Of a stretch of 41,232 nt of DNA, positions 6,414 through 31,161 are shown in pieces. The first letter of the stretch is position 1; the number at the start of each line of letters is the position of its first letter. Under the pieces are notes generated by a model. That model was not told where the DNA came from. It ran no database searches and saw only the letters and a list, made by a program, of their open reading frames with translations. A program made the translations under genes and the position numbers. Location of the stretch: the IMG/VR virus record IMGVR_UViG_3300028832_002797. The stretch is one strand, 5' to 3'. Source of the stretch: a virus (lineage: Duplodnaviria > Heunggongvirae > Uroviricota > Caudoviricetes).

Positions 6414-6450
6414 AATATAGAAAAAAGGTTGACTTTTGTCAACCTCTTTT
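6414..6450 (-). promoter_or_regulatory. Terminator-promoter cassette
   Basis: Stem AGGTTGAC/GTCAACCT plus T-tract; TTGACA-N17-TATATT. Confidence 0.85.
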
Positions 6451-22929: not shown

Positions 22930-22965
22930 AATATAAAAAATGGATTGACTTTCGTCAACCCATTT
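22930..22965 (-). promoter_or_regulatory. Terminator-promoter cassette
   Basis: Stem AATGGGTTGAC/GTCAATCCATT, GAAA loop; TTGACG-N17-TATATT. Confidence 0.85.
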
Positions 22966-22968
22966 AAT

Positions 22969-25303: not shown

Positions 25304-25630
25304 TTACCACTTGATAACGTCAACCTTATCGGGTGCGTCCTCAGGTTCATAAAGTGTCTGGAAAGTTTCATCAGGCATGGCATAAAATTGACCATTGACG
25401 CCTTTAACGATCCAATCGCCTTCTGTTGCCGTATGCCGGCCAGTTGTTGTTGTGATAGTTACTCGGACAGTGTATTTTCCAATATCATATCCGATATTAT
25501 ATTCAGTATCGATGTAACCTTCTCCCCAGCTTAAAATCAACGGGAGATTTTCAACAGTGATTTGTACTGCTTCCACCAAAATAGGTTTCTTGCGATACTT
25601 AGGAACTTTTGTAATATTTGTTGTTTCCAT
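25304..25630 (-). CDS. Small conserved phage protein (YRKKP..VEAVQ / GDWIVKG family)
   Basis: KYRKKPILVEAVQ, TATEGDWIVKGVNGQFYAM..ETFQTLYE. Confidence 0.7.
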   Translation of the reverse strand: METTNITKVPKYRKKPILVEAVQITVENLPLILSWGEGYIDTEYNIGYDIGKYTVRVTITTTTGRHTATEGDWIVKGVNGQFYAMPDETFQTLYEPEDAPDKVDVIKW

Positions 25631-25650
25631 GTTGTTTTCTCTTGTGGTTA

Positions 25651-25687
25651 AATATAGTAAAAAAGCCGCTCTTTGTAAGCGGCTTTT
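25651..25687 (-). promoter_or_regulatory. Terminator-promoter cassette that also serves as the attenuator 3 terminator
   Basis: 10-bp stem AAAAGCCGCT/AGCGGCTTTT plus T-tract; CTTACA-N17-TATATT. Confidence 0.85.
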
Positions 25688-25726
25688 ATTTAAAATTGTT
25701 TGTAAATTTTAATTAACGGTATTTAA

Positions 25727-25801
25727 TTAAAATACGACAAAACAAGCCGCGATATGTGACTTGCTTGATGATGAAATAATGTCGTACTTTCTAATAATCA
25801 T
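25727..25801 (-). CDS. Leader peptide 3, MIIRKYDIISSSSKSHIAACFVVF (Ser/Ile-rich)
   Basis: Hand-translated; AGGT RBS-like; TCA TCA TCA AGC AAG TCA; contains GCGGCTT, complementary to the terminator 5' arm. Confidence 0.7.
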   Translation of the reverse strand: MIIRKYDIISSSSKSHIAACFVVF

Positions 25802-25816
25802 TTCTGTTACCTATGC

Positions 25817-25851
25817 ATTATATATAGAAATTATTTTTTAGTTTTCGCTTT
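25817..25851 (-). promoter_or_regulatory. Class-2 promoter motif AAAGCGAAAA...CTATATATAAT
   Basis: GCG-N23-TATAAT, overlapping the end of the upstream ORF. Confidence 0.7.
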
Positions 25852-29346: not shown

Positions 29347-29382
29347 AATATAATAAAAAATACCCGTTTTGTCAACGGGTCA
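29347..29382 (-). promoter_or_regulatory. Terminator-promoter cassette
   Basis: Stem ACCCGTT/AACGGGT plus T6; TTGACA-N17-TATATT; 34 bp identical to 8055-8088. Confidence 0.85.
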
Positions 29383-29385
29383 TTT

Positions 29386-29529
29386 TTATCTTACGAACAT
29401 TATTATTCCCAACATTATAATTATTCCGATTCCAAGAAACAAGATAGTTAAATCATAGTTCAATGTTGTCTTTTTAACATAAATTGGGTCTAACTTTGGA
29501 ACTTTGTCAATTTCCGCCTTCTTCTTCAT
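29386..29529 (-). CDS. Small membrane protein (47 aa)
   Basis: Hand-translated MKKKAEIDKVPKLDPIYVKKTTLNYDLTILFLGIGIIIMLGIIMFVR; GGAGGG RBS. Confidence 0.5.
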   Translation of the reverse strand: MKKKAEIDKVPKLDPIYVKKTTLNYDLTILFLGIGIIIMLGIIMFVR

Positions 29530-31124: not shown

Positions 31125-31161
31125 AATATAGAAAAAGGATTGACGTTTGTCAACCCCTTTT
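31125..31161 (-). promoter_or_regulatory. Terminator-promoter cassette
   Basis: Stem GGGGTTGAC/GTCAATCCT plus T-tract; TTGACA-N17-TATATT. Confidence 0.85.

Follow-up and report, generated by a model that had tools for sequence, protein, structure and literature searches.

A phage leader with conserved serine codons as a probable ribosome-mediated transcription attenuator

The window analysed here, that is the whole stretch of 41,232 nucleotides (nt) from a huge rumen or gut phage of the class Caudoviricetes (IMG/VR record IMGVR_UViG_3300028832_002797), contains upstream of a block of protein-coding genes a leader, in which a short open reading frame (ORF) with a run of serine codons is followed by a terminator. 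This serine leader probably operates as a ribosome-mediated transcription attenuator sensing serine codons. Its elements are conserved, its pairing segments covary, and a thermodynamic switch between two alternative folds is observed in silico. Six structural features of an attenuator were found in this way: the ORF, the codon run, the terminator, the antiterminator, the hairpin formed by regions 1 and 2 (1:2) and the switch brought about by a stalled ribosome. The whole gene set of the window lies on the minus strand, and all coordinates given for the leader and its elements refer to this strand.

Elements of the serine leader, their conservation and pairing

The leader and its borders are composed as follows.

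26553-25831, minus strand: upstream gene for a protein of 240 amino acids (aa), adjoining the 5' side of the leader
25851-25842, minus strand: upstream box of promoter P2, AAAGCGAAAA, overlapping the final codons of the 240-aa gene
25827-25817, minus strand: extended -10 element of P2, CTATATATAAT, 14 nt after AAAGCGAAAA
25812-25809, minus strand: Shine-Dalgarno-like (SD) AGGT, 8 nt 5' of the leader start codon
25801-25727, minus strand: leader ORF of 24 codons plus stop, kept across lineages
25790-25758, minus strand: region 1, the 5' arms of the 1:2 hairpin (outer 25790-25780, inner 25766-25758) with a 13-nt bulge between them, as given by the minimum-free-energy fold, RNAalifold and pair counts
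25774-25763, minus strand: serine run, codons 10-13, TCA TCA TCA AGC, unpaired in the 1:2 fold
25759-25757, minus strand: extra TCA, codon 15, from the codon reading of the leader ORF
25750-25729, minus strand: region 2, with GCGGCTT at 25750-25744, the inner 3' arm at 25748-25740 and the outer 3' arm at 25739-25729
25706-25699, minus strand: spacer box TTTACAAA, whose ACAAA pairs with TTTGT of region 2 in the antiterminator fold
25687-25678, minus strand: region 3, the 5' arm of the terminator hairpin, AAAAGCCGCT
25670-25659, minus strand: region 4, the 3' arm of the terminator hairpin, AGCGGCTTTT (25670-25661), and six T
25679-25651, minus strand: early-type promoter P1, CTTACA-N17-TATATT, with its -35 element in the hairpin loop and the -10 element TATATT at 25656-25651

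An earlier note made from this sequence had described here a class-2 promoter upstream of a 24-codon ORF, a terminator after it, a leader segment able to pair either with the terminator or within the leader, and a sigma70-like promoter inside the terminator. This description is confirmed in all details, including its caveat about the internal promoter. An exact copy of the promoter motif occupies 25851-25817, the ORF with the serine and isoleucine codons ascribed to it is present at 25801-25727, and AAAAGCCGCT and AGCGGCTTTT form a hairpin succeeded by six T. GCGGCTT (25750-25744) is exactly complementary to AAGCCGC (25685-25679), both alternative pairings, TACGACA/TGTCGTA and CAAGC/GCTTG, lie within the minimum-free-energy fold, and the internal promoter is real, being one of 15 same-strand copies.

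The P2 motif, AAAGCGAAAA-N14-CTATATATAAT, is devoid of a sigma-70-like -35 element and occurs in the window in exactly three perfect copies, 0.01 being expected. Relatives of the locus were gathered using neighbouring proteins as anchors together with two DNA patterns, and eight sequences compose the alignment A3, in which the SD-like AGGT fills columns 1-4 and is invariant. The leader unit was found in one huge-phage clade only, where it is present in seven diverged lineages: the window (W) with L052 and L057, L002 with its near-copies, L061 with L064, L065 and L066, and the single lineages L005, L004, L069 and L073. In all seven of them a -10 element of the TATATA[T/G/A]A type is located at the same distance from the start codon. 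A side observation concerns L061-L066, where the P2 box AAAGCGAAAA is absent and the extended -10 element is retained.

In nearly every comparison the nucleotide identity of the leader exceeds that of the flanking coding DNA. Thus, the leaders of the window and L002 are 91% identical against 71-80% in the adjacent coding DNA, the corresponding values are 78% and 60% for the window and L061, and 92% and 63% for L005 and L004, while inside the L061 group the leader is 100% identical and the downstream gene 86-88%. The ORF keeps a length of 21-25 codons in all lineages despite both in-frame and frame-shifting indels. The upstream neighbour is not the same in all lineages (the 240-aa gene, a gene of the PARG family or others), and the pair of genes coding for a 239-aa protein and a von Willebrand factor A (vWA) domain protein always lies downstream, which means that the leader travels with the downstream block; an assignment of the leader to the upstream gene was rejected for the same variability of this neighbour. 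In L061-L066 the place of the 240-aa gene upstream of the leader is taken by the PARG-family gene (PF10021). The serine leader was not found in more distant relatives that keep the 239-aa/vWA block with its PurA-like gene (L044-L047, L070-L072). A blastn search with 3.1 kb against 50,697 phage records gave no match, a pattern scan of metagenomes returned only near-identical copies of the known lineages and two chance matches, and the matches of the first pattern scan of viral contigs were mostly due to chance and lay inside coding DNA.

The leader RNA of the window folds with an energy of -38.4 kcal/mol (z = -5.9), which was reached by none of 200 shuffles, and the leader of L005 (-36.7 kcal/mol, z = -5.8) forms the same long hairpin and terminator. 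This long 1:2 hairpin (-19 kcal/mol) overlaps the ORF and is built of two stems, an outer one of 11 bp and an inner one of 9 bp, with the serine codons in a 13-nt bulge. In A3 its pairs are formed in 93.8% of cells, against 39-48% with slid partners, five pairs are changed on both sides, the covariation was matched by none of 500 shuffles, and RNAalifold predicted the same hairpin without guidance. Region 2 terminates at the ORF stop codon and a U-run, and by analogy with classical attenuators this U-rich end of the hairpin is a possible pause site. The spacer that separates the ORF from the terminator is AT-rich and contains the box TTTACAAA as well as a small palindromic hairpin. The terminator itself has a 10-bp stem with five G-C pairs, a 7-nt loop and six T, with a hairpin energy of about -14 kcal/mol, and its stem covaries at two positions (G-C/G-U/A-U and A-U/G-C). 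A simple terminator scan missed this main hairpin and flagged only a weaker hairpin with a U-run at 25750-25734, where the 1:2 structure has its 3' end. In the lineage nearest to the window, represented by three independent samples (L057, L058 and L060), the terminator 3' arm reads AGCGAC versus AGCGGC elsewhere, with the antiterminator pairing intact; judging by its C.A mismatch, this terminator may be a naturally leakier variant.

The alternative, antiterminator pairing of regions 2 and 3 (2:3) is present in every leader compared: the GCGG segment together with three further bases is complementary to the terminator 5' arm in all ten distinct sequences. Two positions of this helix covary among the ten, the first as C-G/U-A and the second as U-A/U-G/C-G; the first pair is C-G in the window group and L061 and U-A in four other lineages. 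Among 400 dinucleotide-shuffled versions of the window leader, three contained a perfect 7-nt complement. Taken together with the helper helix TTTGT/ACAAA, the 2:3 helix is paired in 96.9% of A3 cells, versus 42-52% after sliding. The helper helix explains why the box TTTACAAA is conserved: in L061 this box reads TTTGCGAAA, and both of its A-to-G changes still pair with U. The possibility that TTTACAAA is a second -35 element was rejected, since there is no -10 element at a proper distance and the variation in L061 fits RNA pairing.

Ribosome stalling in silico, serine codons and the internal promoter

For the stalling experiments in silico each leader was folded as a transcript cut just before region 4, with the ribosome footprint, taken as 12 nt upstream and 15 nt downstream of the first base of the P site, made unpairable. 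In the absence of a ribosome the 1:2 hairpin forms in six of the seven lineages, the terminator 5' arm remaining free. Placing the A site on the serine run makes the antiterminator the best fold in every one of the seven. The window of stalls competent for this switch always ends at the last serine codon plus one or two codons, and in L061 and L005 it is essentially limited to the serine run, because there the inner stem survives earlier stalls. Of 400 trials with shuffled leaders, 3, 7 and 0 gave so clean a switch. The attenuator suggested in the earlier note is therefore supported by the conservation of the ORF, of the 1:2, 2:3 and 3:4 helices and of the position of the serine run in seven lineages, with covariation, as well as by the switching of constrained folds.

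What is constrained in this leader is, as follows from sequence comparison, the RNA and apparently not the peptide. All lineages share only the Met-Ile start of the peptide and Ser-Ser-Ser (codons 9/10 to 11/12). Two single-base insertions in L061 shift the frame of the conserved GCGGCTTG...TGTCGTA and leave its nucleotides unchanged, and the L061 ORF closes within four bases of the usual stop despite these insertions. The GCGG segment is read in differing frames between the lineages and several compensatory changes are non-synonymous. Since the peptide is not conserved and the nucleotides stay where the frame shifts, the ORF appears to matter only through being translated.

Sensitivity to serine and isoleucine had been proposed together in the earlier note. 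The part concerning serine stands: Ser-Ser-Ser is conserved and encoded by rare codons. TCA is the rarest serine codon of the 59 long ORFs of the window (44 of 533 serine codons, 8.3%), a run of three in-frame TCA occurs in none of these ORFs, TCA occurs once among the 861 codons of the four downstream genes, and in the leader four of the five serine codons are TCA. The nine bases of TCATCATCA are invariant in six lineages though unpaired in every predicted state, and in L069 the run becomes TCA TCA AGT, so that the sequence moves between codon boxes and serine is kept, which argues for the meaning of the codon and not for an RNA motif. Isoleucine was dropped as a second sensed residue, being not conserved past codon 2 and encoded mostly by ATT, which is the commonest isoleucine codon. 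According to theory as well as experiment, biased, starvation-sensitive codons are usual for attenuation leaders, and in the use of a rare regulatory codon TCA of the serine leader resembles CUA of the leu leader (PMC1183508).

The following course of events in vivo, with a translated ORF, terminated or read-through transcripts and specificity for serine, is inferred from these features, as is the physiological purpose of the unit. Transcripts would start at P2 and carry the 24-codon ORF. If the ORF is untranslated or read at normal speed, region 2 would be either locked in the 1:2 hairpin or covered by the ribosome; being unavailable, it would let the 3:4 terminator form, and the transcript would stop near 25660. 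A ribosome waiting at the serine run (codons 10-13, mostly the rare TCA) would hold region 1, so that the freed GCGGCTT could pair with the emerging AAGCCGC of the terminator 5' arm with the help of TTTGT/ACAAA, and the polymerase would continue into the genes for the 108-aa, 239-aa, vWA and 218-aa proteins. P1 would be a second input bypassing the attenuator, which would thus add expression under serine-decoding stress and would not be the sole switch.

The presence of P1 in the terminator gives the operon two inputs. The sequence T[T/G]ACA-N17-TATATT has 15 same-strand copies in the window, with 0.11 expected. At the serine leader its 17-nt spacing is constant in W, L002, L061, L005 and L004 despite the varying length of the hairpin loop; in L069 P1 is degenerate, and in L073 it is absent from the terminator, a similar promoter lying about 100 nt further on. 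The reservation of the earlier note, according to which the downstream genes should not depend fully on read-through, is thereby upheld, as the bypass promoter is conserved at the 17-nt spacing in most lineages. P1 and P2 may plausibly be active at separate times or depend on separate factors, in which case the attenuator would be decisive when P1 is off. As an observation beyond the leader, all 15 module sites on the minus strand (for example 29347-29389, 31125-31161, 22930-22966 and 6414-6450) are co-oriented with the genes and share one layout: a variable G+C-rich hairpin encloses or contains the -35 element T[T/G]ACA, the T-run doubles as the 17-nt spacer, and TATATT follows. This retention of the hairpin among varying stems suggests that the module combines an RNA terminator with an early promoter.

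Sister leaders, known systems and alternative explanations

Two other units of the window, both in front of tRNA genes, have the same organisation.

297-104, minus strand: sister unit 1 (P2 at 297-263), with P2, an SD-like element, a short ORF and a hairpin with T-run, followed by tRNA genes
8825-8633, minus strand: sister unit 2 (P2 at 8825-8791), with P2, an SD-like element, a short ORF and a hairpin with T-run, followed by tRNA genes

The sister ORFs of the window comprise 20-23 codons, and their SD element AAAGG[A/T] is at the position matching AGGT. A 411-kb relative (98% complete) has five good copies of P2, each followed by a short ORF, and a second relative has four; in the 98%-complete genome good copies occur only before leaders. 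With the exception of the serine unit's homologue, all good copies stand in front of tRNA clusters corresponding to the codons enriched in the respective leaders. A Lys/Gln/Arg leader is followed by Gln-Lys-Arg-Gln tRNAs, a Thr/Asn/Pro leader by Asn-Pro-Thr tRNAs, a leader with Leu, Trp and only AGY codons for Ser by tRNAs for Trp, Leu (five) and Ser(GCU), and an Ala/Glu leader by tRNAs for Ala (four), Glu (two) and Val. The leaders of tRNA clusters thus have the same P2 motif, the same SD spacing, ORFs of similar length (20-28 codons) and the same logic of a hairpin with a T-run. They differ in gating tRNA genes, whereas the serine leader precedes protein genes, and no tRNA gene was found downstream of the serine unit in the window or in the loci of five lineages. 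The serine leader also has a full 1:2 anti-antiterminator, and several tRNA leaders instead place the antiterminator over the stop codon; P1 comes after the leader in the serine unit and before it in the tRNA units. On the opposite strand of the 411-kb relative (L040, 357163-357197) there is a P2 match with three mismatches, with a 55-codon ORF at +3 and no tRNA, which is probably not a true member of this promoter class.

Leader-peptide attenuation is a textbook device of bacteria tied to amino-acid biosynthesis. In the enterobacterial trpL, hisL, leuL, pheL, thrL and ilv leaders, as in the serine leader, a short ORF close to the promoter contains a series of codons for a single amino acid, the 1:2 hairpin precedes a U-rich stretch, and regions 2 and 3 can form the antiterminator and regions 3 and 4 the intrinsic terminator. 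Unlike them, the serine leader is encoded by a phage, is proposed to sense serine and carries a promoter in its terminator, and it does not control synthesis of the sensed amino acid, as the enterobacterial leaders do. The best scores among the Rfam leader families (Phe_leader RF01859, 28.1 bits; Thr_leader RF00506, 20.8 bits; Trp_leader RF00513, 18.6 bits) are all far below the gathering thresholds of 55, 55 and 41 bits, and a search at gathering thresholds gave no match at the leader. Ser-specific T-box riboswitches of Firmicutes sense charging of tRNA-Ser and choose between terminator and antiterminator; they need no ORF and possess conserved Stem I and T-box motifs. The serine leader would resemble them in converting the charging state of tRNA-Ser into this choice, but it has an ORF and no match to the T-box covariance model. 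We know of no serine leader-peptide attenuator, and a literature search found neither a phage leader-peptide attenuator nor a serine-sensing one, an absence that is not proof. Serine depletion is sensed through slow decoding of UCN serine codons in sinR of B. subtilis; as described there (PMC3862929), these codons lower translation of their own gene, whereas the serine leader is proposed to steer termination before downstream genes.

Several results weigh against the attenuator or limit its role. The controlled genes have no known link to serine, whereas those of classical attenuators serve the supply of the sensed amino acid. The covariation of the antiterminator is real but thin, as it comprises two informative positions only, in related and non-independent lineages, and the terminator stem of L057 contains the C.A mismatch. 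When the ribosome is at the stop codon, with region 2 just behind it, mixed folds are obtained, the antiterminator being predicted in W and L004; for L073 the antiterminator is the preferred fold of the cut transcript also when no ribosome is present. In four lineages (W, L002, L004 and L069) antitermination is predicted for stalls at any position between approximately codons 3 and 13; with so broad a window in these lineages, the specificity for serine would be based on codon rarity and not on geometry alone. Finally, with P1 conserved inside the terminator, the contribution of read-through may be little.

The conservation of P1 at the exact 17-nt spacing in most lineages and the generic occurrence of the hairpin-plus-P1 module in the genome would suit a stand-alone small RNA that always ends at the hairpin, the operon being driven by P1 alone and the pairings serving RNA stability or some function in trans; the latter is known for released attenuator RNAs of bacteria, as reported in PMC6614838. 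Such a design is unlikely, as it offers no reason for a leader segment to track the terminator 5' arm or for the SD element, start codon, ORF and serine run to survive frame-shifting indels. Besides, the leader is retained both in L073, where no P1 overlaps the terminator, and in L069 with its degenerate P1, and the sister units must be read through, their tRNAs having no promoter of their own. Quite unlikely is also a general sensor of elongation or of transcription-translation coupling, for which the serine run would be only one slow patch and any slowing on codons 3-13 (due to global tRNA damage, stringent response or ribosome-targeting defence) would open the antiterminator. The folds of W, L002, L004, L069 and L073, which antiterminate for stalls over most of these codons, agree with it, as does the presence in this phage of a transfer-messenger RNA (tmRNA) and of tRNAs under sister attenuators; but among the codons of the stall window only the serine run is conserved and the others vary freely between lineages, in L061 and L005 this run alone is competent, and the rare TCA was chosen in four cases of five.

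Two further explanations were considered. The serine codons lie in a conserved single-stranded bulge of a long hairpin, in the manner of a specifier loop, and the bulge nucleotides are invariant in six of the seven lineages, which might point to a translation-independent riboregulator, with a protein, uncharged tRNA-Ser (T-box-like) or a small ligand bound to the bulged UCAUCAUCA and deciding which of the two folds, terminator or antiterminator, is formed. We regard it as very unlikely: T-box and riboswitch models gave no match, even with E allowed up to 10, replacement of the third UCA by AGU in L069 preserves serine and fits codon meaning, the SD element, AUG and open frame are kept in all lineages, and sister leaders list several codons, which one bound factor could not read. 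A functional micropeptide of 24 residues with incidental RNA features might be imagined from the retention of the ORF with a good start context in all lineages and from the hydrophobic C-terminus in several of them. This is hardly credible, since outside Met-Ile and Ser-Ser-Ser the peptide is not conserved, its C-terminal half in L061 is encoded in another frame of the same nucleotides, and compensatory changes in the RNA override the amino-acid sequence. Attenuation by a ribosome waiting at serine codons thus remains the probable function of the leader.

The downstream operon and its gene context

Four genes follow the leader.

25630-25304, minus strand: gene 1, a 108-aa protein (YRKKP), matching phrog_419 and phrog_1810, both of unknown function
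25257-24538, minus strand: gene 2, for a 239-aa protein whose large family occurs in giant phages; always paired with the vWA gene
24523-23633, minus strand: gene 3, a 296-aa vWA-domain protein (phrog_2971, E = 1e-53; VWA score 0.98 in Atlas features)
23625-22969, minus strand: gene 4, a 218-aa protein, followed by a hairpin-plus-P1 module at 22965-22938

The module at 22965-22938 probably ends the transcription unit. The four proteins have no match in Pfam, NCBIfam or PADLOC families and no match to a serine-related family, and in PHROGs the downstream proteins belong to families of unknown function. For the 108-aa protein AlphaFold2 (pLDDT, the predicted local distance difference test, 79) confidently gives a small beta-rich domain, which has no match in PDB at E <= 0.001 and in the AlphaFold database (AFDB) resembles a widespread phage domain, the neighbours found there being all uncharacterised. 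The 239-aa protein has 533 relatives, all in its huge-phage family, and no Pfam match. The 239-aa and vWA genes (25257-23633, minus strand) are also distinguished by base composition, with 47-50% G+C (50% in the 239-aa gene) versus 37-40% in their neighbours, which may reflect a codon bias for high expression or a different origin.

A gene for a nicotinamidase-like isochorismatase (pncA) stands between the leader and the same block in L004, L005, L069 and L073, adjoining the leader or separated from it by a tiny ORF, and in many huge phages the block is flanked by genes for nicotinate phosphoribosyltransferase (NAPRTase), PARG or NUDIX proteins together with a PurA-like gene. The latter, a divergent gene located in the window at 22544-21408 (minus strand) and present as well in L044, L046 and L069-L073, scores 64 bits with adenylosuccinate synthase and 29 bits with PurZ, both far below the cutoffs. 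Its constant association with the 239-aa and vWA genes extends over many huge phages, the group being often found beside NAPRTase, isochorismatase/pncA, PARG or NUDIX genes, so that the PurA-like/239-aa/vWA group looks like a conserved uncharacterised module tied to metabolism of nicotinamide adenine dinucleotide (NAD) or ADP-ribose. Two RNAs encoded elsewhere in the window deserve mention. A full-length cow-rumen-2 RNA of Rfam at 15057-14954 (minus strand; 91 bits against a threshold of 66) places an orphan metagenomic RNA family inside a huge phage. The tmRNA is encoded at 18685-18328 (minus strand; 134 bits) with the tag peptide ANTYAMAA, and the relative L043 has the same tmRNA gene about 5 kb downstream of the vWA block.

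The earlier note regarded the downstream genes as candidate counter-defence factors, an idea backed by gene context only. The first step of serine synthesis requires NAD+. One can tentatively assume, as a possible though rather doubtful extension, that the serine leader is a stress sensor and that failure in decoding serine induces a counter-defence operon linked to NAD salvage (pncA, YRKKP, 239-aa, vWA and PurA-like genes). In this case the failure could come from a nuclease directed at tRNA-Ser or, because of the said requirement, from NAD+ depletion. NAD salvage is described as an answer of phages to NAD-depleting immunity in a preprint (bioRxiv 10.1101/2024.02.11.579819); NARP3 (PMC13464706) is a two-gene system unrelated to the genes considered here.

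If the attenuator works as proposed, a virus uses leader-peptide attenuation, reads serine codons with it and applies it to protein genes unrelated to serine synthesis. Taken with its sister units, which precede tRNA genes, the serine unit suggests a small regulon of huge phages that gauges host translation codon by codon and adjusts phage expression. Should the stress-sensor reading be true, such attenuators would serve as an internal alarm for host immunity, beyond maintaining a steady supply of tRNAs. The finding also points to an uncharacterised conserved set of genes (YRKKP, the 239-aa family, vWA and PurA-like) recurring with NAD-salvage genes, and the attenuator would offer a concrete handle, serine-decoding stress, on when this NAD-salvage-linked set is needed.

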